Shown here piece after piece: positions 6,323-31,572 of a DNA stretch of 44,784 nt. The stretch lies in sequence record NC_047889.1. The stretch is one strand, 5' to 3'. A model generated the notes under the pieces. The model made no database searches. It saw nothing but the letters and a program-made list of their open reading frames with translations, and had not been told where the DNA came from. The DNA is from Escherichia phage mutPK1A2. Numbering within the stretch: position 1 is the first letter of the stretch; every line of letters starts with the position of its first letter. Both the position numbers and the translations under genes were made by a program.

Positions 6323-6338
6323 GTCTCACATGTGAGAC
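6323..6338. repeat. 16-bp perfect palindrome GTCTCACATGTGAGAC (copy 1)
   Basis: Exact palindrome directly upstream of the promoter at 6341. Confidence 0.85.
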
Positions 6339-6340
6339 TT

Positions 6341-6363
6341 ATTTACCGGACACTATAGGAGAA
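6341..6363 (+). promoter_or_regulatory. Phage RNAP promoter ATTTACCGGACACTATAGGAGAA
   Basis: Matches the recurring consensus ATTTAC(T/C)GGACACTATAGAAG; GACACTATAG core as in SP6-class promoters. Confidence 0.7.
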
Positions 6364-6505
6364 ACCATCGGAGATGGGAAAGAGAAGGGAAGTTAAAGGA
6401 TATAAAGGTAGTAATAGGTATTAAAGGTTATATAGGTTACCTAGGAATACCTATTACCTTCCTCCTTCCTCTTATTACTACTTAGAGGAAGGGCAGACCT
6501 AGGTT

Positions 6506-6521
6506 GTCTCACATGTGAGAC
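6506..6521. repeat. 16-bp palindrome GTCTCACATGTGAGAC (copy 2)
   Basis: Exact copy, again directly upstream of a promoter-like element. Confidence 0.85.
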
Positions 6522-6526
6522 TTCGT

Positions 6527-6549
6527 ATTTACCGGACAGTATAGATAAG
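6527..6549 (+). promoter_or_regulatory. Degenerate promoter-like element ATTTACCGGACAGTATAGATAAG
   Basis: Two core substitutions (CAGTATAGAT vs CACTATAGAA); tandem with the promoter at 6341, reminiscent of the T7 phi1.1A/1.1B pair. Confidence 0.4.
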
Positions 6550-6574
6550 ACTAATTCACTTTGGAGATTTAACC

Positions 6575-6703
6575 ATGCGTAACTTTGAGAAGATGACCCG
6601 TAAAGCTAACCGTTTTGACATGGAAGAAGGGCAGACGAAAGGCAAGAAGCTGAATAAGCCTGTCCGTGACCGTGCATCTAAACGCGCTGCGTGGGAGTTC
6701 TAA
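6575..6703 (+). CDS. Small basic protein (42 aa), gene 1.1-like
   Basis: MRNFEKMTRKANRF... starts like my recollection of T7 gp1.1 and sits right after the RNAP gene; RBS GGAG; below the ORF-track size cutoff. Confidence 0.5.
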   Translation: MRNFEKMTRKANRFDMEEGQTKGKKLNKPVRDRASKRAAWEF

Positions 6704-6706
6704 GTT

Positions 6707-8695
6707 ATGACTATTATTCAGAATGTACCGTGTCCTGCCTGTCAAAAGAATGGACATGATATTACTGGCAACCATCTTATGATATTTGAGGATGGCGCTG
6801 GTTACTGTAACCGTGGTCACTTCCATGATAACGGTAAGCCTTATTACCATAAGCCAGAGGGTGGCATCGAGATAACCGAATTGCCTATTACTGGCAATAT
6901 TAAATATACACCTTCTCAGTTTAAAGAGATGGAGAAGGAAGGGAAGATTAGCGACCCTAAGCTACGCGCCATCGCACTTGGTGGTATGCGTATGAAAGAC
7001 CGTTGGGGGGTTATGAATGAGCAAGAAAGGGCAGACCAAGAAGCAGAGTGGAAACTTGATGTTGAATGGTTCCTCACGCTTAAGCGTAAGAACCTTGTAT
7101 CCCGTCACATTCGAGGTGACATCGCAGCAATGTACGATGTGCGCGTTGGACACGATGAAGAGGGAAGAGTCAACCGTCACTATTATCCACGATATGAAAA
7201 GGGTGTGCTTGTTGGAGCAAAATGCCGGACGTTGCCGAAGGATTTTAAGTTCGGACACCTAGGTAAACTCTTTGGTATGCAAGATCTTTTCGGGATGAAT
7301 ACTTTGTCTCACGTGTTAGACAAGGGAAGACGAAAGGATTGCTTGCTTATTGTGGGCGGCGAACTGGATGCACTAGCAGCACAGCAAATGCTCCTTGATT
7401 CTGCCAAGGGTACTAAGTGGGAAGGCCAGCCTTATCATGTATGGTCTGTCAACAAAGGCGAGTCTTGCCTTGAAGAGATAGTGCAGAACCGTGAGCATAT
7501 CGCCCAATTCAAGAAGATTATATGGGGTTTTGATGGAGATGAGGTAGGGCAGAAGCAGAATCAGCAAGCGGCTCGCCTGTTTCCTGGCAAATCCTATATC
7601 CTTGAATACCCATCTGGTTGCAAAGATGCTAACAAGGCATTGATGGCTGGCAAGGCTAAAGAGTTTGTTGATGCTTGGTTTAATGCCAAGTCATCTGATG
7701 AAGTCTTTGGTAGCCAGATTAAATCTATCGCATCTCAAAGGGATAAGCTCAAGGCTGCACGTCCAGAGCAAGGGCTATCATGGCCTTGGCCTAAGCTGAA
7801 CAAGGTAACGCTAGGTATTCGTAAGAACCAGCTTATCATTGTAGGTGCAGGCTCTGGTGTAGGTAAGACTGAGTTCCTCCGCGAAGTGGTTAAACATCTT
7901 ATTGAAGAACACGGTGAATCTGTAGGCATCATTTCTACAGAAGACCCGATGGTCAAGGTGTCCCGTGCTTTTATCGGTAAGTGGATTGATAAGCGCATTG
8001 AGTTACCGCCAACCAATGACCCGAAAGAAGACGGATACCGTGAGGTGTTCGACTACACCGAGGAAGAAGCTAACGCTGCCATTGATTATGTGGCTGATAC
8101 AGGAAAGCTATTTGTGGCTGACCTAGAAGGCGACTATTCTATGGAGAAGGTAGAGCAAACTTGCCTAGAGTTTGAGGCTATGGGCATTTCTAATATCATC
8201 ATTGATAACTTAACGGGGATTAAATTAGATGAGCGTGCTTTTGGTGGGAAGGTTGGTGCACTTGATGAATGCGTCAAACGAATTGGTACTATCAAAGACC
8301 GACATGCGGTTACGATTTTCCTTGTCTCTCACCTTACACGTCCTCCGGCAAACCGTACCCAACACGAAGAAGGTGGCGAAGTTATCCTTTCTGACTTCCG
8401 AGGCTCAGGCGCTATCGGATTCTGGGCATCTTACGCCTTGGGGATTGAGCGTAATACAAGAGCTGAAACGCTTGATGAAAGGACTACCACGTACATCTCG
8501 TGTGTCAAAGACCGCGACCAAGGAATCTACACTGGAACCAAGGTCATGCTTAAGGGTGACATTCAAACCGGACGTTTAATGGAACCACAAGCCCGTACTA
8601 AGTCATTTGATACAGGTGAAGCAAGGCAACAAGAAGTACCTGATTTACCTGACACTATAGAAGGGACTAACTTCGATGAAGAAAGTGAGTTCTGA
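6707..8695 (+). CDS. DNA primase/helicase (T7 gp4-like)
   Basis: 662 aa; N-terminal Cys zinc-binding region (CPACQ...CNRGH), Walker A GAGSGVGKT, acidic C-terminus ending EESEF. Confidence 0.9.
   Translation: MTIIQNVPCPACQKNGHDITGNHLMIFEDGAGYCNRGHFHDNGKPYYHKPEGGIEITELPITGNIKYTPSQFKEMEKEGKISDPKLRAIALGGMRMKDRWGVMNEQERADQEAEWKLDVEWFLTLKRKNLVSRHIRGDIAAMYDVRVGHDEEGRVNRHYYPRYEKGVLVGAKCRTLPKDFKFGHLGKLFGMQDLFGMNTLSHVLDKGRRKDCLLIVGGELDALAAQQMLLDSAKGTKWEGQPYHVWSVNKGESCLEEIVQNREHIAQFKKIIWGFDGDEVGQKQNQQAARLFPGKSYILEYPSGCKDANKALMAGKAKEFVDAWFNAKSSDEVFGSQIKSIASQRDKLKAARPEQGLSWPWPKLNKVTLGIRKNQLIIVGAGSGVGKTEFLREVVKHLIEEHGESVGIISTEDPMVKVSRAFIGKWIDKRIELPPTNDPKEDGYREVFDYTEEEANAAIDYVADTGKLFVADLEGDYSMEKVEQTCLEFEAMGISNIIIDNLTGIKLDERAFGGKVGALDECVKRIGTIKDRHAVTIFLVSHLTRPPANRTQHEEGGEVILSDFRGSGAIGFWASYALGIERNTRAETLDERTTTYISCVKDRDQGIYTGTKVMLKGDIQTGRLMEPQARTKSFDTGEARQQEVPDLPDTIEGTNFDEESEF
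8643..8665 (+). promoter_or_regulatory. Phage promoter ATTTACCTGACACTATAGAAGGG inside the 3' end of the primase/helicase gene
   Basis: Good consensus match; T7-like phages often embed promoters in the ends of genes. Confidence 0.6.
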
Positions 8696-8716
8696 TTAGT
8701 GTATTTATTAGGGCTT

Positions 8717-8732
8717 GTCTCACATGTGAGAC
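8717..8732. repeat. 16-bp palindrome GTCTCACATGTGAGAC (copy 3, extended stem CTTGTCTCACATGTGAGACAGG)
   Basis: Exact core with extended complementary arms, followed by CTCTTATT. Confidence 0.85.
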
Positions 8733-8771
8733 AGGCTCTTATTAAGTATATTAAATAACTGGAGATTGATT

Positions 8772-9494
8772 ATGTATAAATTAGTATTGAATGCAGGTGA
8801 TTATGTTCGTAACATCAATGAAGCCTCACGTCGTTATCGTTGCCGTGGTGTAGTGGATCGTGTAAGTGAGAACATGTATCATGTAGAATATGATGATGGT
8901 GTTAAGGCTTCTTATCACAAGAAAACTGCACATAAATATCTTGAAAAGGTTGTAGAGGTAAACAATCAATGTAAGTGCATACATGATGAGGTTTGCGATA
9001 AGTGCAGACGTCAGGCAATTAAAGCCTTTACCTTTGCTCAACGCTATGGCTCTATGTATGGTACTGGTCACAAGACCCTTGCAGAAGCAGCTTGGAAGAC
9101 ATTGCAGTTTGAGCATTCAAATGGACGACGCACCACACTTAAGAAAGAGCGCCGCAATGTAATCACTGGTAAGACTCAAAGTGAGATGATTAAGCAATGT
9201 GGCACTGCATTAGGTGTTACACAGTTTAATACTCGTGCATTGGGTAAATCCACAGGACAAGCTATGGTAAAGATTGGCGAAGCCATGATGCATCCAAATG
9301 TACCTGTGCGAATCATGGATGTTGACCATGCAATCACAGAACAAGGTACGCAACGACGTGTAATTAATAAGCATTTTGCCGACACTATAGAAGGTATTAT
9401 TCGTAAGCAAGGGTTGAAAGGTCTTCACATCTTAAATGGTGAAGAATTACTGTACCTACCTATCGTTACTGAAGAAACCTACGTGAATATCTAA
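8772..9494 (+). CDS. Hypothetical protein (240 aa) with Cys cluster CKCIHDEVCDKC
   Basis: ORF track (first ATG at 8772, RBS GGAG); between primase and DNA polymerase. Confidence 0.6.
   Translation: MYKLVLNAGDYVRNINEASRRYRCRGVVDRVSENMYHVEYDDGVKASYHKKTAHKYLEKVVEVNNQCKCIHDEVCDKCRRQAIKAFTFAQRYGSMYGTGHKTLAEAAWKTLQFEHSNGRRTTLKKERRNVITGKTQSEMIKQCGTALGVTQFNTRALGKSTGQAMVKIGEAMMHPNVPVRIMDVDHAITEQGTQRRVINKHFADTIEGIIRKQGLKGLHILNGEELLYLPIVTEETYVNI
9373..9395 (+). promoter_or_regulatory. Weaker promoter-like element ATTTTGCCGACACTATAGAAGGT inside a CDS
   Basis: Core GACACTATAGAAGG conserved; upstream half diverges from consensus. Confidence 0.4.
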
Positions 9495-9504
9495 GGAGTT
9501 AATC

Positions 9505-9723
9505 ATGACTAAGGTATTAATTTATATGCGTGGACCTCATAAATGCTATGCAGTTGTAGCACCAGATGGTGTTAAGCCCTATGGTACTTCAAAAGGATTG
9601 GCATTAATAGGTGCTAGTCGTAGTGCAAGTTTCCAAATGGAACTTTTTGGTCATTGGACTGAATGGCAATTCCGTGAGGATTTTAAAGTCATTGGCAGCT
9701 TCATGGTGAAACATGCAAAATAA
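9505..9723 (+). CDS. Hypothetical protein (72 aa)
   Basis: ORF track; strong RBS TAAGGAG. Confidence 0.55.
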   Translation: MTKVLIYMRGPHKCYAVVAPDGVKPYGTSKGLALIGASRSASFQMELFGHWTEWQFREDFKVIGSFMVKHAK

Positions 9724-9922
9724 ACATAGTCTTAAAATGTTCGATGGTCATGAAGACCTGCAAGCCAAGATTACTAACCAAGCCTTCCTGTTTGCACAGC
9801 TAACTATGGCTGAAGCAAAGAAGAATAGCCTGACGCGCGAGCAAGTTATCAAAGAGGCAACTTGGGAGCCACACCAAGGCAAATACATGGGCCAGAAATT
9901 AACTGTAACACGCAGTCGATAA
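9713..9922 (+). CDS. Hypothetical protein (69 aa)
   Basis: ORF track; overlaps the previous gene by 11 nt; start uncertain. Confidence 0.4.
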   Translation: MQNKHSLKMFDGHEDLQAKITNQAFLFAQLTMAEAKKNSLTREQVIKEATWEPHQGKYMGQKLTVTRSR

Positions 9923-9932
9923 GTAAAGGGTT

Positions 9933-9948
9933 GTCTCACACGTGAGAC
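9933..9948. repeat. Palindrome variant GTCTCACACGTGAGAC (copy 4)
   Basis: One central substitution (CACGTG for CATGTG); follows an ORF stop and is followed by CCTTTC. Confidence 0.8.
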
Positions 9949-9979
9949 AGCCTTTCATCATATTGATTGGAGGTGCATT

Positions 9980-10087
9980 ATGTCACGTGATTATGATTCT
10001 GATTGGGATTTCCAAGATTCAATGAACTCAAAACCTGAACGTTCAGATGACTACTACGAAACAGAGGCAATGTATGAAAGCTATTAA
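9980..10087 (+). CDS. Small acidic protein (35 aa)
   Basis: RBS GGAGGT 7 nt before ATG; short, so tentative. Confidence 0.35.
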   Translation: MSRDYDSDWDFQDSMNSKPERSDDYYETEAMYESY

Positions 10088-10292
10088 AGTCAGTAAGGTT
10101 TGCTCTTGCGGTAAAGGTTATCGCAGTCGTATTGATGGTAAGTGTGGGCATTGCAGGTCTAAGAAAGAGGCTGCTTTGTTTGATAAGTACCACAATGAAT
10201 TAGCATATAACTATCCTCATCTAACACCTAATTCTTTATTAGGACTTGGTTATAGGGTTAAATACTTTGGAGCAATCTATGAAATCAATTGA
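10074..10292 (+). CDS. Small zinc-ribbon-like protein (72 aa; CxC...CxxC)
   Basis: In-frame ATG at 10074 with GAGG upstream inside track ORF 10047..10292; four Cys in VCSCGKG...CGHC; overlaps the DNAP start by 14 nt. Confidence 0.45.
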   Translation: MKAIKVSKVCSCGKGYRSRIDGKCGHCRSKKEAALFDKYHNELAYNYPHLTPNSLLGLGYRVKYFGAIYEIN

Positions 10293-12825
10293 TTGGAAGA
10301 AGGAAGCAGAAGGCCGCATCTTAGTGATGGATTCTGAGGCTAAAGGCCTGCTGGATGCTATCCGATATGGCCACCGCGAAGATGTGCACATCATTTGCTG
10401 CATGGATTTGCTTACTACAGAGGAGTTCCTCTTCTTTGACCCATACGAGATGCGTGACCCTGAAGCAAGAGAACGCCTAAAAGAATGGGAAGGCCATCAA
10501 GATGGAACATTGGTTGACGGTGTTAACTTCCTTAAGCACTGCGAAGCCATCGTCTCACAGAACTTCCTAGGGTACGACGGCCTTCTATTTGAGAAAGCAT
10601 TCCCTGATATCTGGAAAGGCTTTAACTATACCGAGAGACGCGGCAAGGGCAGACTCCGCGCTGACCTGTGTCCGGTACGCGTCATGGATACGCTGGTCAT
10701 GAGTCGCCTGTTAAACCCCGATAGACGCCTCCCTCCGCAAGCATACGCCAAAGGCATGGGTAACGTAGCCCCTCACTCAATTGAGGCGCACGGCATCCGT
10801 ATAGGCCGTTATAAGCCGGAGAACGAGGACTGGTCTAAACTAACGGACCACATGGTTCACCGTGTACGTGAAGACGTGGCTATTGGTCGCGACCTCTTCC
10901 TCTGGCTATACAACGGGGAATGGACGGAGCACAAACGCCGTGGCGTGAATAAACGTACGGGCCTAGGCATTGAGACGGCCTTCCACATGGAATCAATTGT
11001 GGCGCTGGAGATGAGCCGTCAGGCCGAGCGTGGATTCCGTCTGGATATAGATAAAGCATTAGCACGATGCGAGGAATTGGACGCTAAGATTGATGAGACA
11101 GTCGCAGCGTTCCGTCCGCACATGCCTATGCGTATCAGGTCTAAACCTTTTAAACCGGAAGAAAAGAATGAAGTATGCCAACGCGCAAATGAGTATGGAG
11201 CTAGCAACAATATACCTACTGTCCTTGACCCCTCACACTTTCTTCATGCCGAGAGACGAGGAGATCGCAAAACAGTATGGAGTGTCACTACTAAGTCTGG
11301 TGATTGGTCGGCTAGTATCAAGAAAGACTTTCCTCACCTTAGAGGAAACCGTAATGACACGCCAAGTATCAAGTGGATTGGCGCTTACTCGCCTGTTACT
11401 TTCGAAGAGATTCCCTTGGGTAACAGGGATACAGTTAAGCAAGTGCTCTATGATTATGGATGGAAAGGTGTTGAATTTAACGATACCGAGCAAGCGCATC
11501 TGGATGAGTATGGAGTGTTACCCAAACCTTGGAGTGGGAAGATAAATGAAAAGTCCCTTACTTTATGGCAAGAGAGAGCCGCACGTGAAGGTAAAACAGT
11601 CCCTGATTGGTGCTTGGGTATCGCTGCATGGTACATACTCGTATCCCGTCGTGGTCAGATCCTTAACCGTGGTGACGTTGAAGCCTTCGACCAGAAGGGG
11701 GCGTGGCCTTCGCAAGCTGGTGTACGAAAGTGTCGCGGCCTTGTACCTGTAGCATTTAACAAGGAGTTAGGAATCAATGCGCAGCAATATTACGAAAGGT
11801 ACGGATGCTGGCCTACGTCAGACAAGGATGACGGAGAGTGGCGTGTGCCAGCTATTGCTATTAGTATTGGAACTTCTACGTTCCGTATGCGTCATCGTAA
11901 CGTGGTTAATATTCCTGCCCGTGGTTTGTATCCTTTACGTGATTTATTCATAGCCGGTAAAGGTAAGCTAATCCTTGGTTGTGATGGTGCTGGTCTTGAA
12001 CTACGTGTACTGTCTCACTTCATGAATGACCCTGAATATCAAGATATTGTACTGCATGGTGACATTCACACCCATAATCAAATGAAGGCTGGTCTTCCTA
12101 AGCGTGACATGGCGAAGACATTTATATATGCCTTCCTATATGGGTCTGGTATAGCTAGCCTTGCAGCAGTATGTGGTGTTACTGAGGAAGAAATGGAGGA
12201 AGTTGTGGCAAGATTTGAGGTTGAACTACCATCTCTTGCACGTCTTCGTGAGAATGTTATCGCACAAGGTAACAAGTTTGGCTACCTACAAGCACCTGAT
12301 GGTCATTGGGGTCGCATCCGTATGTCTGGTGGTGAACTTAAAGAGCACACTATGCTTAACGTGTTACTCCAAATGACTGGCTCTTTGTGTATGAAATACG
12401 CATTGGTCAGAGCGTTTGCAGTGATGCGCAAGGAAGGTGTGGCCTTAGATAGCATGGGAAACCCTTGCGGTATAGCTAACGTGCACGATGAAATCCAGAT
12501 GGAAGTCCCTGAAGATGAGGTCTTGTTTCTCAACTACGACTTGCCTTTCACCTTAGAAGGGTTCGAAACAGAGAAGGCTGCTGTGAAAGCAGTGTTCGAT
12601 GCAGAGGAGAAACGTGTTCATGTGGATTCTGAAGGACGTATGTGGTCTGCTGCAAATCTCGTTAGCGTTGATGCTGATGCTGGTGTACTTCATTGCCAGC
12701 GTCGCTATCACCGTGCAGGGCATATCATTGCCGACGCAATGACTTGGGCGGGTCAGTATCTGAAGATGCGTTGTCCGATGGCAGGTGAGTATAAGATTGG
12801 TGCAAGTTGGAAGGAGACACACTAA
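10279..12825 (+). CDS. Family A DNA polymerase (T7 gp5-like)
   Basis: 848 aa from ATG 10279 (RBS GGAG); exo motif DSEAKGL, pol motifs DGAGLELRVL, RDMAKTFIYAFLYGSG, HDE. Confidence 0.95.
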   Translation: MKSIDWKKEAEGRILVMDSEAKGLLDAIRYGHREDVHIICCMDLLTTEEFLFFDPYEMRDPEARERLKEWEGHQDGTLVDGVNFLKHCEAIVSQNFLGYDGLLFEKAFPDIWKGFNYTERRGKGRLRADLCPVRVMDTLVMSRLLNPDRRLPPQAYAKGMGNVAPHSIEAHGIRIGRYKPENEDWSKLTDHMVHRVREDVAIGRDLFLWLYNGEWTEHKRRGVNKRTGLGIETAFHMESIVALEMSRQAERGFRLDIDKALARCEELDAKIDETVAAFRPHMPMRIRSKPFKPEEKNEVCQRANEYGASNNIPTVLDPSHFLHAERRGDRKTVWSVTTKSGDWSASIKKDFPHLRGNRNDTPSIKWIGAYSPVTFEEIPLGNRDTVKQVLYDYGWKGVEFNDTEQAHLDEYGVLPKPWSGKINEKSLTLWQERAAREGKTVPDWCLGIAAWYILVSRRGQILNRGDVEAFDQKGAWPSQAGVRKCRGLVPVAFNKELGINAQQYYERYGCWPTSDKDDGEWRVPAIAISIGTSTFRMRHRNVVNIPARGLYPLRDLFIAGKGKLILGCDGAGLELRVLSHFMNDPEYQDIVLHGDIHTHNQMKAGLPKRDMAKTFIYAFLYGSGIASLAAVCGVTEEEMEEVVARFEVELPSLARLRENVIAQGNKFGYLQAPDGHWGRIRMSGGELKEHTMLNVLLQMTGSLCMKYALVRAFAVMRKEGVALDSMGNPCGIANVHDEIQMEVPEDEVLFLNYDLPFTLEGFETEKAAVKAVFDAEEKRVHVDSEGRMWSAANLVSVDADAGVLHCQRRYHRAGHIIADAMTWAGQYLKMRCPMAGEYKIGASWKETH

Positions 12826-12923
12826 TGCAAACTGCTTTTATCATTCTTGGGATCATATTATTTATGGTAGTACTCTGGGCTTTCTCTGGCATTGACCCAG
12901 ATTGTGATGGTAACTACGACTGA
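12825..12923 (+). CDS. Small hydrophobic membrane peptide (32 aa)
   Basis: ATG overlapping the DNAP stop (TAATG); AGGAG upstream; sequence MQTAFIILGIILFMVVLWAFSG is one TM helix. Confidence 0.3.
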   Translation: MQTAFIILGIILFMVVLWAFSGIDPDCDGNYD

Positions 12924-12991
12924 GTTATACTCAAGGTCACTTACGAGTGGCCTTTATGCATAACTTATTCCTACTTATTTTGTCTAACATG

Positions 12992-13014
12992 ATTTACTGG
13001 ACACTATAGAAGGA
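12992..13014 (+). promoter_or_regulatory. Phage promoter ATTTACTGGACACTATAGAAGGA
   Basis: Exact consensus copy. Confidence 0.75.
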
Positions 13015-13078
13015 AATCCTAGGTAATCTAGGTTTATAAGGTAGTATAGGTAACTAAGTAAATATAGGAGATATAAAT

Positions 13079-13465
13079 ATGTCTATGGTAACTACTCTGG
13101 TATTCGTGGCTCAATACTTTCGTGGTCTGGCTAATAAGTTCAAGTCCAAGGCCATCAAAGCTATTGAGTCTCGCATCGAAGCAGTACAGGCAGAGCAAGT
13201 TAAAGTTGAAGACCATCGTAGTTCTCAAATGATTGACTGTCACAACCGCTACTATGCATCTCGTGATGAATTAAATGCACGTCAAGTCAAAGAGGTTGAA
13301 GAAATGATGGCACGTCACCAGCAAGAGCGTGACAACCTGAAAGCTGACTTCGAAGAGAACAAGGCATCCATTGCTCTGGTACATCAAGCTGCATCTGATA
13401 GCTTGAAGAAAGAGATTGTTATGCTGGAAATTGAACTGGACAACTTGACTAATAAGGAGCTATGA
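13079..13465 (+). CDS. Hypothetical coiled-coil protein (128 aa)
   Basis: ORF track; RBS TAGGAG; heptad-like charged sequence. Confidence 0.6.
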   Translation: MSMVTTLVFVAQYFRGLANKFKSKAIKAIESRIEAVQAEQVKVEDHRSSQMIDCHNRYYASRDELNARQVKEVEEMMARHQQERDNLKADFEENKASIALVHQAASDSLKKEIVMLEIELDNLTNKEL

Positions 13466-13761
13466 TGGAAGAAGTGATTCAAGCTAAACATGTAGGTATC
13501 ATCTTTCGTGATCTAGAGCAGCGTAAAGTTGCAGGTCATACCCGTTTGGCTAAAGAAGATGATACAGCAATCACTACTGTTGAACAAGCAGATGCCTATC
13601 GTGGTCCAGAGTTTACTCAAGGTGAAACTTGTCACCAATTGAGCCTATCACTTTGTGACACCATGGCTATTGTAAATGTGCAAGAAGTTGAAGAAGGTGA
13701 GTGTGTCAGTTACATCTACCCTTTAGATACTATTGCACGCATTAAGGTAATCCATAAGTAA
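13462..13761 (+). CDS. Hypothetical protein (99 aa)
   Basis: ORF track; RBS AAGGAG; start overlaps the previous stop. Confidence 0.55.
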   Translation: MMEEVIQAKHVGIIFRDLEQRKVAGHTRLAKEDDTAITTVEQADAYRGPEFTQGETCHQLSLSLCDTMAIVNVQEVEEGECVSYIYPLDTIARIKVIHK

Positions 13762-13783
13762 TTACTGGACACTATAGAACAAT
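13759..13783 (+). promoter_or_regulatory. Phage promoter (AATTACTGGACACTATAGAACAA)
   Basis: Consensus core; followed by a roughly 190-bp structured leader with several hairpins before a strongly expressed gene. Confidence 0.7.
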
Positions 13784-13974
13784 AGGATGTGGGTTTGTCG
13801 GAGACAGTAAAGCCAAGGTGCTCAGTGAGCGTAAAGCCTAAGCACGTCCTATGATTGTAAAGTGTTGATGTTGAACCCTTGTGCATCTTGCACAACCCGA
13901 TACTATATCGGGCTTTCTAGTGAGTACATGCTTGTGCTCAGTACAAAGCTAACTGACAATAGGAGACTAAATAA

Positions 13975-14781
13975 ATGGCACGTGGTGATTTTGATTTTGG
14001 TGCTCAGATTACTAAATCTGAAGGTAAAGTCTTTAAGAATCCAGAAGTAGGTGATCATGAAGCAGTAATCTCTGGCATCATTCATGTTGGTTCCTTCCAA
14101 GACATCTTTAAGAAAGGTAATACCACTGAAGTTAAGAAGCCAGCAAACTTTGTTCTGGTTAAGATTGTCCTGATGGGTGACGATGACAAGAACGAAGATG
14201 GTTCTCGCATGGAACAATGGATGGCTGTGCCTCTGAAGTCTGGTGATAAGGCAACACTGACTAAGTTCCTGAATGCAGTTGACCCTAAAGAGTTGCTGGG
14301 TGGCTTCGATGATTTCATTGGTGAATGCCTGACTGCAACGATGGTTGGTTCTGGTGACAAGAATGACGATGGCTCATTCAAGTATGTTAACTGGAAAGGT
14401 TTCGGTGGTATGCCGGACAAGCTGAAGAAACTTGTCATTGCTCAGGTTGAAGAAGAAGGTCTGTCGATGACAGGTCACATCACCTTCGACAAACTGACCA
14501 AAGAAATCCTTGATGATATTCCTGCTAACTTGGTGCGTCAATACTTCCTTAACGAGACGCCTCGTGGTAAGAACATGTCTGTTTCTGGTTCTCACGTAGA
14601 AGCAATCATCAAAGCTGCTCGCGAAGAAGACCCAGAGTGGAAGAAGGCTAAGAAGAAAGAAGAGGAAGATGCTACCCCAGCTAATCGTAAATCTCTGGCT
14701 ACTGGTGAGTCTGTTCCGCAGGAAGTACCTGAAGCAGAAGATACTCCTGCACCGGAGATGGATGAGGACGCGGAATATTAA
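13975..14781 (+). CDS. Putative ssDNA-binding protein (gp2.5-like)
   Basis: 268 aa; own promoter and structured leader; acidic C-terminal tail ending DEDAEY as in T7 gp2.5; no direct similarity verified. Confidence 0.4.
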   Translation: MARGDFDFGAQITKSEGKVFKNPEVGDHEAVISGIIHVGSFQDIFKKGNTTEVKKPANFVLVKIVLMGDDDKNEDGSRMEQWMAVPLKSGDKATLTKFLNAVDPKELLGGFDDFIGECLTATMVGSGDKNDDGSFKYVNWKGFGGMPDKLKKLVIAQVEEEGLSMTGHITFDKLTKEILDDIPANLVRQYFLNETPRGKNMSVSGSHVEAIIKAAREEDPEWKKAKKKEEEDATPANRKSLATGESVPQEVPEAEDTPAPEMDEDAEY

Positions 14782-14790
14782 GGAGAACGG

Positions 14791-15009: not shown

Positions 15010-15010
15010 A

Positions 15011-15026
15011 GTCTCACACGTGAGAC
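15011..15026. repeat. Palindrome variant GTCTCACACGTGAGAC (copy 5)
   Basis: Immediately after a stop codon and 15 bp upstream of the promoter at 15042. Confidence 0.8.
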
Positions 15027-15041
15027 AACTCGGTGTCCGGT

Positions 15042-15064
15042 ATTTACTGGACACTATAGAAGAG
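15042..15064 (+). promoter_or_regulatory. Phage promoter ATTTACTGGACACTATAGAAGAG
   Basis: Exact consensus. Confidence 0.75.
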
Positions 15065-15114
15065 AAGAATTTTAATCGGCGATAATGCCATAACCAACAA
15101 AAGGAGAATTTAAT

Positions 15115-15489: not shown

Positions 15490-15495
15490 TTTATG

Positions 15496-15528: not shown

Positions 15529-15553
15529 CGTAATAGTTATTGGAGAATGAATT

Positions 15554-20921: not shown

Positions 20922-20922
20922 T

Positions 20923-23393: not shown

Positions 23394-23409
23394 TCAGTAT
23401 TTACTGGAC

Positions 23410-23432
23410 ACTATAGAAGGGAGAAATGTCTC
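23410..23432 (+). promoter_or_regulatory. Phage promoter ATTTACTGGACACTATAGAAGGG (capsid promoter)
   Basis: Exact consensus, directly upstream of the major capsid gene. Confidence 0.8.
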
Positions 23433-23469
23433 CCTAAATTATCAATTTGATTTATAAGGAGGTTTATTA

Positions 23470-24675: not shown

Positions 24676-24683
24676 TACCTATG

Positions 24684-24716
24684 CCCTATCTACCTTGCGT
24701 AGGTAGGGTTCTTTTT
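24684..24716 (+). terminator. Intrinsic terminator after the major capsid gene
   Basis: Imperfect 10-bp stem (CCCTATCTAC / GTAGGTAGGG) with loop CTTG followed by TTCTTTTT. Confidence 0.6.
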
Positions 24717-24729
24717 GTTAGGAGGATTC

Positions 24730-25467
24730 ATGCCTGTAATTAGACAAACCAGTAAAGTAGGACATATGATGGAAGATGTGGCCTTCCAGATTATTGATAG
24801 TAAGCTGGAAGCGGTAAACTTGTGTATGCGAGCTATTGGTCGTGAGGGTGTGGATTCTCTCGACTCAGGTGACTTGGACGCAGAAGATGCAAGCAAGATG
24901 ATCGACATCGTATCCCAGCGATTCCAGTACAACAAAGGAGGTGGCTGGTGGTTCAATCGTGAACCAAACTGGCAGATTGCACCTGATACCAATGGTGAAG
25001 TCAATCTACCTAACAACTGCCTAGCAGTATTGCAGTGTTATGCTTTGGGTGAGAAGAAAGTACCCATGACTATGCGAGCAGGTAAGCTCTACTCTACATG
25101 GAGTCATACCTTTGATATGCGTAAGCATGTGAATGCTAATGGTATGATTCGTCTTACCTTACTTACCTTACTTACATATGAGCATCTACCTACTAGTGTA
25201 ATGCAGGCTATTGCCTATCAAGCTGCTGTAGAGTTTATTGTGTCTAAGGATGCAGATCAGACTAAGCTAGCCACTGCACAGCAGATTGCCACTCAACTTC
25301 TTATGGATGTGCAATCCGAACAAATGTCACAAAAGCGACTGAATATGCTTGTGCATAATCCTACGCAGCGTCAGTTCGGTATTATGGCGGGTGGTTCTCA
25401 GAATGTACCTGCTTACTCTCATTCACCATATGATAGTTGGGCACTTCGTCCGTGGGAGGATCGTTAA
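24730..25467 (+). CDS. Tail tubular protein A (gp11-like)
   Basis: RBS AGGAGG before ATG 24730; region AIGREGVDSLDSGDLDAEDASKMIDIV...GGGWWFNREPNWQIAPD resembles T7 gp11. Confidence 0.8.
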   Translation: MPVIRQTSKVGHMMEDVAFQIIDSKLEAVNLCMRAIGREGVDSLDSGDLDAEDASKMIDIVSQRFQYNKGGGWWFNREPNWQIAPDTNGEVNLPNNCLAVLQCYALGEKKVPMTMRAGKLYSTWSHTFDMRKHVNANGMIRLTLLTLLTYEHLPTSVMQAIAYQAAVEFIVSKDADQTKLATAQQIATQLLMDVQSEQMSQKRLNMLVHNPTQRQFGIMAGGSQNVPAYSHSPYDSWALRPWEDR

Positions 25468-27869
25468 TGGAAGTACAAGGTTCGTTAGGGAGGCAAATCC
25501 AAGGGATTAGCCAGCAACCTCCAGCAGTACGTCTTGATGGTCAATGCACTACTATGGTGAACATGGTCCCTGATGTGGTGAATGGGACTCAATCCCGCAT
25601 GGGTACAACTCACATTGCTAAGCTCTTGGATGAAGGTACAGATAATATGGCAACGCACCATTATCGCAGGGGTGAGGGGGATGAAGAGTATTTCTTCACC
25701 TTAAAGAAGGGGCAAGTGCCAGAGATATTTGATAAGCATGGACGCAAGTGCAATGTCATCTCTCAAGATGCACCTATGACCTACCTTTCTGAAGTTGTTA
25801 ACCCTAGGGAAGATGTGCAATTCATGACTATAGCTGATGTTACTTTTATGCTTAACCGTAGGAAAGTGGTTAAAGTTAGTAATAGGAAGTCACCTAAAGT
25901 TGGAGATAAAGCCATTGTGTTTTGTGCATATGGTCAATACGGTACATCTTATTCTATCATAATTAATGGAACTACAGCTGCTAGTTTTAAAACACCAGAT
26001 GGGGGAAGTGCAGAACATGTTGAACAAATACGAACGGAACGTATCACTTCTGAATTGTACTCCAAGTTGCAGCAATGGAGTGGTGTGAATGACTATGAAA
26101 TACAAAGAGATGGTACGAGCATATTTATAGAGAGACGCGATGGTAAAAGTTTCACAGTAACAACTACCGATGGTGCAAAAGGTAAGGACTTAGTGGCTAT
26201 CAAGAATAAAGTTAGCTCTACTGACCTACTCCCTTCTCGTGCGCCTGCTGGTTATAAAGTGCAAGTGTGGCCTACTGGCAGCAAACCTGAGTCTCGTTAC
26301 TGGCTGCAAGCTGAGCCGAAAGAGGGAAACCTTGTGTCTTGGAAAGAAACAATAGCTGCTGATGTATTACTTGGGTTTGATAAAGGCACAATGCCTTACA
26401 TCATTGAACGTACAGGTATCATTGACGGCATAGCTCAATTCAAGATAAGACAAGGTGATTGGGAAGATCGTAAAGTAGGGGACGACTTGACTAACCCTAT
26501 GCCCTCTTTTATTGATGAGGAAGTGCCCCAGACAATAGGTGGGATGTTCATGGTACAGAACCGTCTATGCTTTACAGCAGGCGAAGCGGTTATTGCTTCT
26601 CGTACATCATACTTCTTCGATTTCTTTCGTTATACGGTTATCTCTGCACTGGCAACTGACCCATTTGATATTTTCTCAGATGCGAGTGAAGTTTATCAAT
26701 TGAAACACGCAGTAACCTTAGATGGCGCTACCGTGTTATTCTCTGATAAGTCACAATTCATTTTGCCAGGAGATAAACCGCTAGAGAAATCCAACGCCTT
26801 ACTCAAGCCTGTCACAACATTTGAAGTTAACAATAAAGTTAAACCAGTAGCCACTGGTGAGTCTGTAATGTTTGCTACTAACGATGGTGCTTACTCTGGT
26901 GTCCGAGAGTTCTATACAGACTCTTATAGTGACACTAAGAAGGCACAAGCAATCACAAGTCATGTGAATAAGCTTATCGAAGGTAACATTATCAACATGG
27001 CAGCAAGTACCAATGTCAACCGATTGCTTGTCACTACCGATAAATATCGTAACATAATTTACTGCTATGATTGGTTATGGCAAGGTACAGACCGTGTACA
27101 ATCAGCATGGCATGTATGGGAGTGGCCTATGGGTACAAAGGTGCGAGGTATGTTTTATTCTGGTGAATTACTTTATCTACTCCTTGAGCGAGGCGATGGC
27201 GTCTATCTGGAGAAGATGGACATGGGTGATGCACTAACCTGTGGTTTGAATGACCGCATCAGAATGGATAGGCAAGCAGAGTTGATCTTCAAGCATTTTA
27301 AAGCAGAAGATGAATGGATATCTGAACCACTTCCTTGGACTCCTACTAACCCAGAACTTTTGGATTGCATCTTAATAGAAGGGTGGGATTCATATATTGG
27401 AGGTTCTTTCCTGTTCAAATATAACCCTAGTGATAACACCTTGTCTACAACCTTTGACATGCATGATGATAACCACGTAAAAGCGAAGGTTATTGTTGGT
27501 CAGATTTACCCTCAAGAGTTTGAACCAACACCTGTAGTTATCAGAGATAGGCAAGACCGTGTATCCTATATTGATGTACCTGTTGTGGGATTAGTTCACC
27601 TTAATCTTGATATGTATCCTGATTTCTCCGTGGAGGTTAAGAATGTGAAGAGTGGTAAAGTACGCAGGGTGCTAGCGTCAAACCGTATAGGTGGTGCTCT
27701 CAACAATACAGTAGGCTATGTTGAACCAAGAGAAGGTGTCTTCAGATTCCCACTGAGAGCTAAGAGTACGGATGCTGTTTATCGTATTATTGTAGAATCA
27801 CCTCACACATTCCAGCTCCGCGATATTGAGTGGGAAGGGAGCTACAATCCAACCAAAAGGAGGGTCTAA
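25467..27869 (+). CDS. Tail tubular protein B (gp12-like)
   Basis: 800 aa; N-terminal GISQQPPAVRLDGQ resembles T7 gp12 GISQQPDILRYPDQ; start overlaps previous stop (TAATG). Confidence 0.85.
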   Translation: MEVQGSLGRQIQGISQQPPAVRLDGQCTTMVNMVPDVVNGTQSRMGTTHIAKLLDEGTDNMATHHYRRGEGDEEYFFTLKKGQVPEIFDKHGRKCNVISQDAPMTYLSEVVNPREDVQFMTIADVTFMLNRRKVVKVSNRKSPKVGDKAIVFCAYGQYGTSYSIIINGTTAASFKTPDGGSAEHVEQIRTERITSELYSKLQQWSGVNDYEIQRDGTSIFIERRDGKSFTVTTTDGAKGKDLVAIKNKVSSTDLLPSRAPAGYKVQVWPTGSKPESRYWLQAEPKEGNLVSWKETIAADVLLGFDKGTMPYIIERTGIIDGIAQFKIRQGDWEDRKVGDDLTNPMPSFIDEEVPQTIGGMFMVQNRLCFTAGEAVIASRTSYFFDFFRYTVISALATDPFDIFSDASEVYQLKHAVTLDGATVLFSDKSQFILPGDKPLEKSNALLKPVTTFEVNNKVKPVATGESVMFATNDGAYSGVREFYTDSYSDTKKAQAITSHVNKLIEGNIINMAASTNVNRLLVTTDKYRNIIYCYDWLWQGTDRVQSAWHVWEWPMGTKVRGMFYSGELLYLLLERGDGVYLEKMDMGDALTCGLNDRIRMDRQAELIFKHFKAEDEWISEPLPWTPTNPELLDCILIEGWDSYIGGSFLFKYNPSDNTLSTTFDMHDDNHVKAKVIVGQIYPQEFEPTPVVIRDRQDRVSYIDVPVVGLVHLNLDMYPDFSVEVKNVKSGKVRRVLASNRIGGALNNTVGYVEPREGVFRFPLRAKSTDAVYRIIVESPHTFQLRDIEWEGSYNPTKRRV

Positions 27870-28591
27870 TGGCTATAGGTTCAGCCGTTATGTCTGGTAT
27901 GTCTTCTATTGGTAGTATGTTTGCAGGCAGCGGTGCAGCAGCCGCTGCTGGAGGTGCTGCCGCAGGTGGCGGAGGTTTGCTAGGTTCACTAGGTGGATTC
28001 CTAAGTGGCTCCACTGCTGGTTTCTCTAATGCTGGCCTTCTTGGTGCTGGCCTTCAAGGGTTAGGCTTGATTGGTGATCTCTTTGGTGGAAGTGATGAAG
28101 CCAAGGCGATGAAGAAAGCACAAGAAGAGCAATGGCGGCAGCAGCTTATTGCTACACAAGAGGCGTACAAGACAGTGGCAGACGCAGAACGTTCTGCTGC
28201 TAAACAATATCATGCAGATGCAATCAGTAATCAGGCTTCACTGCTACAGCAGCGAGCACAGGTTGCATTACTTGCTGGGGCTACTGGTACTGGTGGTAAT
28301 TCTGTGTCCTCTATGCTTAATGACTTAGCAGCAGATGGCGGCAGGAACCAGAGTACTATCATTGATAACTATGAGAATCAGAAGATTAATTTCACCAACC
28401 AGCTTAAGTCTATCCAACGTGGTGGTCAGATGCAGATGCGTGAGTTTAAGAAGCCTTCTGCTATGAATACCTTGGTTAAAGGTATTCCAAGTCTGGCATC
28501 TGCCTATGTAACTGGTAGTAAGTCTGGCAAGGCATTGGGTAAAGCCTTAACTGATTCTCGCACATATTCATCTGGAACAAGAGGTATTTAA
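27869..28591 (+). CDS. Internal virion protein (Gly/Ala-rich N-terminus)
   Basis: 240 aa; low-complexity G/A/S N-terminal region; position after tail tubular B as gp13/gp14 in T7. Confidence 0.65.
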   Translation: MAIGSAVMSGMSSIGSMFAGSGAAAAAGGAAAGGGGLLGSLGGFLSGSTAGFSNAGLLGAGLQGLGLIGDLFGGSDEAKAMKKAQEEQWRQQLIATQEAYKTVADAERSAAKQYHADAISNQASLLQQRAQVALLAGATGTGGNSVSSMLNDLAADGGRNQSTIIDNYENQKINFTNQLKSIQRGGQMQMREFKKPSAMNTLVKGIPSLASAYVTGSKSGKALGKALTDSRTYSSGTRGI

Positions 28592-31539
28592 TGGCAATTG
28601 AGCGACAAGCAGTACAAGGTCTGCCACAAGTGCAGGCCACTTCTCCTAATGTCATGACCTTTGCACCTCAACAAGTGGGAGGTGTGGAGGCTGGCGTGGC
28701 TTCTACCTCCGGTAGTAGGTTTATCGAAGACCTTATTCGTGCAGCAAGCAGCGTGGCTGATGTTACCACTGGTATCCTTAATCAGAAGATTGAGGAAGAT
28801 AAGGTTGTTCAAATGGAACGGGCATATAACGGATTAATGCCTTCTGAGGATGCAACTCGTGGTGGCGCTCGTGCTAACATGCTTGTCAAAGCTCAACTGC
28901 TAGCTAATGATGAAGCAGCACGAATGAAAGACATGGCTACTCGTTTCCAAGGGACGGATGACGAGTGGACACAACTTATGGTTGACTCTCGTAATGAGAT
29001 GCAGAATAAGCTGTTCCAGCAATACCCTGAGTTGCAAGGTGACAAAGATACTATGCGTATGGTCACTAATGTCTTCCAAGAACAGCAGCCTCAGATTTGG
29101 GCTACACGGACCCAGCATAAACTTGACCGTGAACAAGCAGACCGTGAGGATACCTTTGACGGGCGAGTGGCTTCTACTTGGGATTCTAATATTGACCCTG
29201 AAGCATCTGGCTATGCTTTACAGGAACGAATCCGCGAAGGTCTGACTCAAGGATTACTACCTGAACAGATGCACAAGAAGTTAGTCCAGCGGGCAATTTC
29301 ACTTGCACAAGGTGGGGATGTTAGCATGGCTGAAGCACTGAAGTATGTGAAGGACGATAAGGGCGTTTCTGTTTATGCTAAGAATCCACAGCTTATCACA
29401 GCCATCACTAGTGGTAATGCAGTTTGGGCTAGGAATAATGTAGCTGATGTAACTCGTATGTCTTTCGAAGTTAAAGAATCATACCTTGCAGGCGATTTAA
29501 CTGATGAAGAATTATTGGAACGAGCACAGCACATTAATAATCTGACAGGTAACTCTGTCTTCTCTAATTCAGAGCTAGAGGCACTGATGCGCAAACGGGC
29601 TAAGCAGAATGCAGAGCTAGGTGCAATGCAGGATATGCGACGTGAGCTTTACTCCGACCGCCTGACTGGCTTCCAAGGTAAGACTGATAAAGAGAAGAAG
29701 GCTTACATTGATGTTATCAAACAGGATAGCCAACTTTATGCAGACCAGCAAATCAAACAACGTGGCTTGGACCCTTACAGTCAAGAGGCTGAAGCTATTC
29801 GTGGTGCAGTGGAAGTGCAGCGCCTGCAATTCATGAACTCCAAAGGCTTAGTGGATGATACCTTTGAGTCTCGTATCAAAGCCATGGAATCTATGCTATC
29901 GCCTGAGCACTTTGCCAAGGGCGAACCACAGGAGTTGATGACTATTCGCCAGTTGTGGGAACAGTTGCCAGAAGAGAGCCGAGGTGTCTTTGGTGACACG
30001 GTGAATGGCTACATGGATAACTACAACACTGCACTACAAATGGGAGAGACACCTTTGCAGGCTGCAAGGTTTGCGCGTGAAGCACAGCAGAAATTCTCTC
30101 GTACTGAGAAGGAAAACAAGAAGTTCAACTCAGCTATTGGAGATGCACTGGATGAGGTATCTGGTGCTGGCTGGTTTGATGGTAAAACCGAAGTGTCAGA
30201 CTTAGGTAAAGCTATTGCGGAAGAAGAGTTACGAGCTAAGGCCAATATGTTGTGGTCTAGCGGTATGCGTAACATGGATTCTATCAAGAAGGCTTTAATT
30301 ACTTGGGGCAATAAACGCTACACTCAATCAGAGGATGCAAAGACTTCAGGTGGCTATTTCATTAAAGGTGATTACACTTCTGCATCTGATATGCTTATGT
30401 CAGTTGGGAAAGGTGTAAACCCTACCGATGTCCCTCTGGCGCTTGGTAGGTATGTAGAAACACAGATGCCAGAATTGAAGAAGGAGCTTCAAGAGTGGGA
30501 AACTAAGGATGATGTGTACATTGATTACAATGAACAGAAAGGAACTTTTGTGATTCGTGCTGGTGCAGCAGGTCGCCCTCTTTCTGGAGTAATCCCTGTA
30601 ACTTCTTTGGATACCACTTCACTACTGGATTCTGCCTATCAGAAGAAAGTAGAAGAACGAGATAAAGGCGAGTATGTTCATCCCTATCGTACAGGTATCG
30701 GTGCACAAGAACCAATGCCAGCTAAGCCAACTGCCAAAGATATTGGTAAATTTGGACTAGCTAACTTCCTCATGTCTTCTGCTTTTGCTTCTGGTGAGAA
30801 TCTGCCTTCTAACTTCGAGATTAACTATCGAGGTAATATGCAACAATTCTATGACAAGCTAGCTATGGATGAGAATAAAGATAAAGTTGGCTTTAATAAG
30901 GCAACTGGAACCTTTACTCCATATAAAGACGCTCACGGTGAGTCTATCGGTTACGGTCATTTCTTAACGGAAGAAGAGAAGCGAAACGGGTATATTAAGA
31001 TTGGCGATGAACTAGTTCCCTATCGAGGGTCTATGTCTCAGCTTACAGAGAGTAAGGCTCGCGCTCTTATGGAGCAAGATGCTAAGAAGCATGTGCCTCC
31101 TACTCGTGACTGGAAGATTCCGTTTGACCAGATGCATCCTGCACAGCAACGTGGCTTGATGGATTTAACCTACAATTTAGGTAAAGGTGGAATCCAGAAC
31201 TCACCGCGTGCTCTTGCTGCATTCAAAGCTGGTAAACTTACGGAAGGCTTTATCGAAATGCTGGGTACTGCATCTAGTGAAGGTAAACGTGTTTCTGGCT
31301 TACTGAAGCGACGTGCTGAGGCTTACAATATGGCATCTGCTGGTGGTGTGCCTAAGATTACCGAAGTGGAGACTCGTGAAGATGGCTCCATGTGGGTTAG
31401 GTTTGGTGGCCCTATGCCAGCAGGTTCTGTCTCGGCATGGACTCATAAACGTATTGGCGCGGATGGTTGGTATCAGGTTTATGATGCTGCACCTACCAAG
31501 TTAACTAAAGATTCTAAGGTAGGTAAAGTTAAATTGTAG
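28591..31539 (+). CDS. Internal virion protein with C-terminal GH24 lysozyme-like domain
   Basis: 982 aa; C-terminal region (about nt 30900..31330) has T4-lysozyme-like motifs DAHGESIGYGH and LMDLTYNLGKGG. Confidence 0.75.
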   Translation: MAIERQAVQGLPQVQATSPNVMTFAPQQVGGVEAGVASTSGSRFIEDLIRAASSVADVTTGILNQKIEEDKVVQMERAYNGLMPSEDATRGGARANMLVKAQLLANDEAARMKDMATRFQGTDDEWTQLMVDSRNEMQNKLFQQYPELQGDKDTMRMVTNVFQEQQPQIWATRTQHKLDREQADREDTFDGRVASTWDSNIDPEASGYALQERIREGLTQGLLPEQMHKKLVQRAISLAQGGDVSMAEALKYVKDDKGVSVYAKNPQLITAITSGNAVWARNNVADVTRMSFEVKESYLAGDLTDEELLERAQHINNLTGNSVFSNSELEALMRKRAKQNAELGAMQDMRRELYSDRLTGFQGKTDKEKKAYIDVIKQDSQLYADQQIKQRGLDPYSQEAEAIRGAVEVQRLQFMNSKGLVDDTFESRIKAMESMLSPEHFAKGEPQELMTIRQLWEQLPEESRGVFGDTVNGYMDNYNTALQMGETPLQAARFAREAQQKFSRTEKENKKFNSAIGDALDEVSGAGWFDGKTEVSDLGKAIAEEELRAKANMLWSSGMRNMDSIKKALITWGNKRYTQSEDAKTSGGYFIKGDYTSASDMLMSVGKGVNPTDVPLALGRYVETQMPELKKELQEWETKDDVYIDYNEQKGTFVIRAGAAGRPLSGVIPVTSLDTTSLLDSAYQKKVEERDKGEYVHPYRTGIGAQEPMPAKPTAKDIGKFGLANFLMSSAFASGENLPSNFEINYRGNMQQFYDKLAMDENKDKVGFNKATGTFTPYKDAHGESIGYGHFLTEEEKRNGYIKIGDELVPYRGSMSQLTESKARALMEQDAKKHVPPTRDWKIPFDQMHPAQQRGLMDLTYNLGKGGIQNSPRALAAFKAGKLTEGFIEMLGTASSEGKRVSGLLKRRAEAYNMASAGGVPKITEVETREDGSMWVRFGGPMPAGSVSAWTHKRIGADGWYQVYDAAPTKLTKDSKVGKVKL

Positions 31540-31556
31540 TACCTAACTCAAGGCTT

Positions 31557-31572
31557 GTCTCACATGTGAGAC
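31557..31572. repeat. 16-bp palindrome GTCTCACATGTGAGAC (copy 6, extended stem)
   Basis: Exact core with flanks CTT...AGG, followed by TCTTTAT. Confidence 0.85.

Follow-up and report, generated by a model that had tools for sequence, protein, structure and literature searches.

RNase III processing sites of phages T7 and T3 (R0.3, R0.5, R1, R1.1, R1.3, R4.7 and R18.5) are the closest described relatives of the element treated here, a 16-bp palindrome, GTCTCACATGTGAGAC, which is repeated in the genome of Escherichia phage mutPK1A2 (sequence record NC_047889.1; the whole stretch of 44,784 nucleotides is called the window hereafter). The T7/T3 sites are likewise intercistronic, on the plus strand and often near phage promoters, they are built of the same lower stem, asymmetric internal loop and upper stem, they have the common flank consensus AGUG..UA.CUCAAGG / CCUUUAUGAU..CAUU and, likewise, the sequence of the upper stem is common to the sites of one genome. 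However, the upper stem in the present phage is 13 bp and not about 10 bp long, and a 16-nt palindromic module replaces the GGUCACU/AGUGGCC top. In addition, unlike the T7/T3 sites, the module can also stand alone, by promoters or within genes, or form a tandem with RNase III-like hairpins, as it does in Vibrio phage BD5 and Pseudomonas phage Achelous.

Three other systems bear comparison. Class I terminators such as T-phi and SP6 t5 are also hairpins at the end of a transcription unit, but most copies of the palindrome have neither a long G + C-rich stem nor a U-run. Repetitive extragenic palindromes (REP) and bacterial interspersed mosaic elements (BIME) are likewise short, nearly identical imperfect palindromes after stop codons, which form mRNA hairpins and undergo concerted evolution; the palindrome of the phages is much shorter (16-17 nt), no RAYT-like transposase is found in these phages, and the palindrome occupies homologous sites in distant genomes instead of being scattered by transposition. 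PeSL, the promoter-early stem-loops of T4-type phages, are reportedly mobile regulatory cassettes (they are said to have been described by Arbiol and coworkers in 2010), in which a conserved stem-loop is likewise followed by a promoter and repeated at the boundaries of gene modules. A core exchange at position 9570 of phage K1-5, which adjoins a module junction, adds to this likeness, whereas the promoters concerned here are those of a single-subunit polymerase, the stem-loop is also found without a promoter and inside RNase III sites, and no sign of mobility was seen. The stand-alone palindrome resembles PeSL and REP in its behaviour and belongs to neither.

The window is a complete genome of 44,784 bp with a direct terminal repeat of 286 bp (1-286 = 44499-44784). 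It has about 95% identity to Escherichia phages ACG-C91 and K1E (Vectrevirus, Molineuxvirinae, Autographiviridae), all of its genes run from left to right and it contains 12 phage promoters of the type ATTTACYGGACACTATAGRA. The palindrome, GTCTCAC-RY-GTGAGAC, which is called the core in what follows, is exact at 6323, 6506, 8717 and 31557 and has one mismatch, with AC instead of AT in the centre, at 9933 and 15011; these are the six copies that had been listed in a sequence-only reading of the window. The degenerate copy that this reading had put at about 609 exists as well, with two mismatches and at 612-627, and a further two-mismatch copy at 7306-7321, within the primase/helicase gene, had been missed by it. 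Four copies follow stop codons, as had been claimed: 8717 by 21 nt, 9933 by 10 nt, 15011 by 1 nt and 31557 by 17 nt. The eight matches (three mismatches or fewer) are to be compared with 0.23 +/- 0.47 expected, and eight were reached in none of 100 dinucleotide shuffles. At least six of the eight lie outside any plus-strand open reading frame (ORF), in DNA that makes up 6-10% of the genome (P about 1e-6 to 2e-5), and seven are truly intergenic because the ORF overlapping 31557 is spurious. The equal frequency in shuffled genomes or coding DNA that was to speak against the motif was thus not seen, and the palindrome is non-random and intergenic. All copy positions are kept in K1E, K1-5 and R4596, and the core is present across the SP6-like lineages, so the conservation that had been proposed as a check is found. 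A search of the whole window against Rfam gave no relevant match at E <=1. No description of the motif was found in the literature that exact-sequence searches (18 variants) and keyword searches can reach, outside which lie the SP6 and K1-5 genome papers (Dobbins 2004, Scholl 2004), which may annotate copies as terminators or RNase III sites.

The palindrome is probably a conserved RNA stem-loop, three copies of which cap T7-type RNase III signals, the bare ones being end-of-unit hairpins. According to this explanation, the palindrome would be the DNA image of a plus-strand RNA stem-loop of 6-7 bp, GUCUCA(C)/(G)UGAGAC, with a centre of 2-4 nt, and this stem-loop would be an ancient modular element of SP6-like phages at the junctions of transcription or translation units. 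The copies at 8717, 9933 and 31557 would form the apical half of the processing signals, where host RNase III, by homology to T7, would cut the 3' side of the internal loop; the cut would split the polycistronic mRNA and the upstream message would then end in a hairpin. The bare copies (6323, 6506, 15011 and the remnant at 612), which follow one unit and precede the next promoter, would most likely act as end-of-unit hairpins on read-through transcripts, that is, as a 3' barrier or a pause, which is the weakest step of the explanation. The copies would be held nearly identical either by homogenisation among themselves or by a partner that reads the same sequence in all of them. The flanked copies are the following.

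8698-8755, plus strand: RNase III-type two-helix element that follows the helicase gene, with the core 8717-8732 as its apex; fold -25.8 kcal/mol, z -7.5 (minus strand -12.3)
9914-9971, plus strand: RNase III-type two-helix element overlapping the gp11 stop, with the core 9933-9948 as its apex; fold -22.9 kcal/mol, z -5.8
31538-31595, plus strand: RNase III-type two-helix element between gp35 and gp36, with the core 31557-31572 as its apex; fold -22.8 kcal/mol, z -5.1

Each of these cores is found at the tip of a plus-strand structure of 56-58 nt, consisting of an upper stem of 13 bp, an asymmetric internal loop and a lower stem of 8-10 bp, and the three structures are far more stable than those of shuffled sequences. 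The sites hold several G-U pairs and therefore the minus-strand fold is much poorer at two sites (-12.3 and -14.2), though it is not so at the remaining one (-21.0). The sequence of the 31557 site is ACUCAAGGCUU-core-AGGUCUUUAU↓GAU, the arrow marking the putative cut here and below, with the longer 3' flank AGGUCUUUAUGAU; its flanks are identical to those of T7 in ACUCAAGG and CUUUAUGAU, following the pattern ACUCAAGG...CCUUUAU↓GAU. Partial matches to the T7 flanks are present at the 9933 site (AAAGG/CCUUUCAUCAU) and the 8717 site (UUAGGG/CUCUUAUUAAG), and the flank consensus of the SP6 group agrees with that of T7 (CUCAAGG ... CCUUUAUGAU around the upper stem). By homology to T7, cuts are predicted after 8742, within CUCUUAU↓UAAG, after 9958, within CCUUUCAU↓CAU, and after 31582. 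When the three sites of seven phages were aligned (21 sequences), 97.6% of the alignment cells were paired, as against 35-42% with the partners slid, 12 of the 22 pairs had changes on both sides, and G-U pairs were conserved at columns 4-58 and 21-41. The assignment of the copies at 8717, 9933 and 31557 as homologues of T7-type RNase III sites is supported at the level of sequence and structure.

The T7 genome was folded at ten RNase III cleavage coordinates, which we take to be those of Dunn and Studier (1983), and seven canonical sites were aligned, giving the consensus AGUGnUAUACUCAAGGUCACU..GAGUGGCCUUUAU↓GAUUnUCAUU with the flank sequences AGUGnUAUACUCAAGG...CCUUUAUGAUU, which those of the three palindrome sites match. 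A covariance model built from these T7 sites only was run on the window with the filters off; its E-values are rough, as the calibration was shortened. The palindrome sites rank second, fourth and ninth in the window, all on the plus strand, and all three align to the model over its full length, the core apex being taken as a loop insertion. The candidates are given here in the order of score.

12921-12970, plus strand: canonical T7-like RNase III site without the palindrome (UACUCAAGGUCACUUACGAGUGGCCUUUAUGCAU), 45.5 bits, E 2e-8
31538-31595, plus strand: palindrome site, 30.3 bits, E 1e-4
41488-41536: RNase III-like hairpin without the palindrome, 22.5 bits
9914-9971, plus strand: palindrome site, 19.9 bits, E 0.039
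1829-1880: RNase III-like hairpin without the palindrome, upstream of ocr as T7 R0.3, 19.9 bits
3553-3604: RNase III-like hairpin without the palindrome, upstream of the polymerase gene as T7 R1, 18.1 bits
2604-2652: RNase III-like hairpin without the palindrome, 16.0 bits
8698-8755, plus strand: palindrome site, 13.6 bits, E 1.4

The first of these, 12921-12970, lies 22 nt upstream of the promoter 12992 and is nearly identical to the T7 consensus; it has no core, and therefore the RNase III signal can do without one. For the gp35/36 site, scores of 35-46 bits are reached by the homologues in SP6, Klebsiella phage K61PH164C1, Proteus phage PM85, Pectobacterium phage PP1 and Erwinia phage Era103. 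Of the proposals of the sequence-only reading, an RNA processing site is supported, by sequence, structure, covariation and the T7-only model, for 8717, 9933 and 31557 only; the extended complementary flanks it described are likewise confined by RNA folding to these three sites, and its U-rich tail is better read as the conserved T7-type motif of the 3' internal loop, CUUUAUGAU.

The stand-alone copies, together with the terminator-like hairpin that belongs to their surroundings, are as follows.

612-627, plus strand: degenerate left-end copy GTCTCACATGCTAGAC, two mismatches; hairpin broken, -2.9 kcal/mol
6256-6289, plus strand: intrinsic terminator-like hairpin with a T-tract directly after the RNA polymerase gene, an analogue of TE
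6323-6338, plus strand: stand-alone exact core with a 6-bp stem and a CAUG loop; -6.9 kcal/mol, z -0.6
6506-6521, plus strand: stand-alone exact core, 5 nt upstream of the phage promoter 6527-6546
15011-15026, plus strand: core with AC in its centre, lying 1 nt past the gp17 stop codon and 15 nt before the promoter 15042-15061

The core 6323-6338 ends 2 nt upstream of the phage promoter 6341-6360, so the proximity to promoters claimed for three copies holds, at distances of 2, 5 and 15 nt (promoters 6341, 6527 and 15042); five of the eight copies in the window have no adjacent promoter. In every lineage examined, cores stand 0-18 nt upstream of phage promoters, a terminator-like hairpin precedes the first core after the polymerase gene, and the order there is terminator, core, promoter. 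A sigma-70-like early promoter (651-680) is found about 25 nt downstream of the copy at 612-627; the left-end copy is well formed in K1-5, SP6, the Klebsiella phage K61, PP1, PM85, Era103 and Achelous, and those of PM85 and Era103 are immediately adjacent to a phage promoter. The two-helix structure with an internal loop is absent at 6323, 6506, 15011 and 612, and the core 6506 retains the 5' flank of the flanked sites, AGGUU, without the 3' partner.

Two features of these neighbourhoods may be recorded. Between the two core-plus-promoter cassettes lies a 150-nt non-coding, AT- and purine-rich leader with a long hairpin (6358-6505), corresponding in position to the primary replication origin of T7 (phi1.1A/B). 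The core 15011 is followed by a second hairpin, 15035-15052 (GTCCGGTATTTACTGGAC), whose 3' arm is the specificity region, -11 to -5, of the promoter 15042, which is thereby sequestered. Its homologues in SP6, PM85 and PP1 have the 5' arm altered to fit each phage's own promoter, and it resembles T7 R13/R6.5, where a promoter is contained in a hairpin of the read-through RNA.

The core is found in Molineuxvirinae, Colwellvirinae, Gajwadongvirus and one Vibrio phage, in forms of 16 or 17 nt.

Vectrevirus and Era103: GTCTCAC-RY-GTGAGAC
SP6 and UAB_Phi78: GTCYAAC-RY-GTTGGAC
K61PH164C1 and PP1: GTCCAAC-RY-GTTGGAC
Vibrio phage BD5: GTCTAAC-GY-GTTAGAC
ECBP5: GTCTAGT-RY-ACTAGAC
PM85: GTCCAAC-ASU-GTTGGAC (17 nt)
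Pseudomonas phage Achelous (Colwellvirinae): GTCTCAC-ASU-GTGAGAC (17 nt)

These versions stand at homologous loci, namely at the left end, downstream of the polymerase gene, within the helicase gene and downstream of it, upstream of the DNA polymerase gene and of gene 18, and in the interval from gp35 to gp36. In all of them the outer GTC/GAC is invariant, the arm positions 5/12, 6/11 and 7/10 change jointly between lineages, and in PM85 and Achelous arms of 7 bp enclose a 3-nt centre (A-C/G-T); because of the invariant ends, the co-changing arms and a centre of 2 or 3 nt, a hairpin fits better than a duplex site of fixed spacing. In a scan of the contig collection, nearly all contigs with the 17-nt form were of this phage type and 42-48 kb long. 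The core of BD5 and Achelous is placed beside, not within, RNase III-like hairpins, and this tandem placement, together with the core-free RNase III sites, means that the core is combined with RNase III signals and is not itself one. As judged from these comparisons of sequence, the core appears to be an independent module of much greater age.

Copies within a genome share one variant, except in K1-5, where two cores of the A5/T12 type occur among C5/G12 cores. Copies inside genes change with the others. One such in-frame coding copy belongs to the window.

7306-7321, plus strand: in-frame coding copy GTCTCACGTGTTAGAC in the primase/helicase gene (6707-8695), codons S-H-V-L-D

The same copy encodes S-N-V-L-D in relatives with A5 cores, and in-frame coding copies always read S-(N/H)-(V/M/T/A)-L-D. 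Asn (AAC) is the common state at the helicase and polymerase sites and probably the ancestral one; His (CAC) is seen in the helicase of Vectrevirus (H202) and, as an independent change, in the polymerase and ligase of Era103, and the lineages with this change from N to H are exactly those with C at position 5 of the genome-wide core. The partner position in the coding copy cannot follow, because a perfect palindrome would create a TGA stop. This concerted change points to homogenisation of the copies, to a partner that reads the sequence of all of them or to a function in which they pair with each other.

Some single loci of the relatives are also of note. At 9570-9585 of K1-5 a core of the Klebsiella/Pectobacterium-phage type (GTCCAACGTGTTGGAC) lies within native Vectrevirus flanks, about 30 nt from the point where the downstream gene diverges from that of the window, and looks like a recombination junction. 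Era103 has two cores 19 nt apart, with a truncated promoter (ATTAACCACCCAGGAA) between them, at 7022-7072, which suggests deletion or recombination between core-promoter cassettes. In ECBP5 an 18-bp palindrome, GTACTAGTTRGCTAGTAC, resembling the trp operator consensus, is found just downstream of two cores (about 6061-6078 and 14590-14607). In a high-GC 85-kb IMG/VR contig the 16-mer GTCTCACGCGTGAGAC has three exact copies and one near copy within 100 bp (2061-2159), upstream of ParB/ParA-like genes, and is probably a partition or operator site in an unrelated context; this contig and a 129-kb high-GC contig with the same 16-mer were rejected as relatives on account of their unrelated contexts.

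Several observations weigh against the explanation by a stem-loop that caps RNase III signals or ends units. The cores 6323, 6506 and 15011 fold only as a weak core hairpin (-6.9 to -10.8 kcal/mol, z about 0), no consistent conserved flank structure was found at the stand-alone and left-end sites on either strand, and RNase III cannot use the bare copies as they stand. Furthermore, 6323 and 612 are transcribed only by read-through, since the one is downstream of a terminator and the other upstream of the first early promoter. The scores of the T7 model are marginal for 9914 (E 0.039) and 8698 (E 1.4). RNase III sites without the core occur (12921 in the window and the gp35/36 site of Era103), and therefore the core has some function of its own. 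In addition, the change from N to H in the coding copies raises their identity to the other copies and lowers their own pairing, which simple hairpin stability does not explain. Finally, asymmetric copies in IMG/VR contigs are oriented 23 times as U.G and 15 times as C.A, and pairing on the plus strand alone predicts otherwise. The C.A orientation is concentrated at left-end sites and is also seen at some post-polymerase sites, so a DNA-level role may hold for some stand-alone copies; copies in Zindervirus are consistently asymmetric (T4/G13, a U.G pair in RNA). As both orientations occur (23:15), this asymmetry was rejected as a clean test of RNA versus DNA.

These points leave room for a broader reading, doubtful as it is, in which the GUC...GAC stem-loop would be an unrecognised 'punctuation' element of the whole SP6-like supergroup (Molineuxvirinae, Colwellvirinae, Gajwadongvirus and related Vibrio phages), read by a conserved phage factor or acting through pairing between copies, the RNase III sites being secondary; its effect would be strong enough to impose N to H on RNA polymerase, helicase and ligase. 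That the core is specifically the site of a co-evolving, sequence-specific phage factor, either a protein or the phage RNA polymerase, reading an RNA hairpin or duplex DNA, seems unlikely, and somewhat more so than the broader reading. A factor would account for the invariance of GTC/GAC among phages whose RNA polymerases are only 42-46% identical, for a centre that is always R-Y, or A-S-T in the 17-nt form, for a position 5/12 that is only A-U or C-G, with amino/keto kept, and never the mutationally easier G-C, for the variant common to all copies of a genome, for the change from N to H in helicase (Vectrevirus) and in polymerase and ligase (Era103) in exactly the C5-core lineages, and for cores standing tightly beside promoters in every lineage. 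However, K1-5 mixes two A5/T12-type cores with C5/G12 ones, so specificity at 5/12 is not strict, identical arms are spaced differently (16 versus 17 nt) in different phages, and cores lie anywhere from 0 to 18 nt away from the promoter. In a search for a co-varying gene of a trans-acting factor, no gene tracked the core variant in its presence or similarity, and the universal proteins of unknown function gp6, gp10, gp16 and gp18 gave no informative match in Pfam or PHROGs. The premise of the sequence-only reading, that identity of the copies implies a sequence-specific partner, is only half right: T7 RNase III sites also share the sequence of their upper stem, and K1-5 tolerates a foreign core variant at one site. 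The dimeric protein site on DNA that it had suggested is weakened by the 17-nt form, by the promoter gap of 0-18 nt and by flank G-U pairs that belong to the plus-strand RNA only. Such an operator found no support, since the same arms are found as 16 nt (Vectrevirus, Era103) or 17 nt (Achelous, PM85) and since the core stands 2, 5 or 15 nt from promoter position -17 in the window, the relatives having gaps of 0-18 nt; resemblance to operators of the CRP, LacI and MetJ type was rejected by inspection. A primase site (GTC is the T7 primase trinucleotide) was also dropped, the SP6 primase being reported to use GCA.

Two further mechanisms are less probable again. It is improbable that the phage RNA polymerase terminates weakly or pauses at the bare copies, which would thereby shield the downstream promoter from read-through, although in all lineages these copies close a unit, come after the post-polymerase terminator and stand immediately ahead of promoters, and although 6323 and 6506, followed by UUAUUU and UUCGUAUUU, both pass a lax terminator scan with stems of 6 bp. 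Most copies (15011 and most of those in BD5, Achelous and Era103) have no U-run, which also tells against the ordinary class I terminator considered before; the stems are weak, copies lie inside the genes of RNA polymerase, helicase and ligase, where termination would harm, and the SP6 terminator t5, which is used experimentally, is a different, GC-rich hairpin with a U-run. A class I intrinsic terminator for a T7-like RNA polymerase was accordingly rejected, as a stable G + C-rich stem with a U-run is missing, and t5 was rejected as a match to the core on account of its unrelated hairpin sequence. The terminators of SP6 polymerase are counted as seven, one of them only 14 bp from a start site, in a passage of one paper (PMC11347151), and this distance may fit the core-plus-promoter cassette. 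Slightly more improbable still is that the self-complementary copies pair with each other into a 16-bp duplex, for example as an RNase III substrate looping out the segment between 6323 and 6506. Selection for mutual pairing would force the copies to stay identical, and the idea explains palindromy, identity within a genome and genome-wide switches together; both the minimum free energy and the centroid structure of 6285-6560 pair 6323 with 6506 (-76.6 kcal/mol, z -3.1), and this mechanism alone predicts that the change from A5 to C5 in the coding copy improves pairing to the consensus (15/16 versus 14/16) and worsens its own hairpin. However, gene conversion predicts the same tracking, the complementarity of the 6323 and 6506 flanks is, by inspection, not conserved between lineages, the ACU and AGU centres do not alternate along genomes of the 17-nt lineage, local hairpins are the first to form as the transcript is made, and most copies, which are translated, have more than 1 kb between them.

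With the conserved stem-loop as the preferred explanation, phages of the SP6/K1-5 type would use T7-style RNase III punctuation of their long mRNAs, for which cut positions can be predicted from the sequence. A second and apparently older hairpin module, GUC...GAC, is told apart from it, conserved from coliphages to Pseudomonas and Vibrio phages, placed beside promoters and subject to concerted evolution even inside essential genes. If it is true that this module has a reader of its own, it would represent a new layer of gene-expression control in this group of phages, which is widely used for therapy and for SP6/K1E RNA polymerase tools; even without such a reader, the elements would provide ready-made insulator or processing parts and a compact sequence signature of the group.

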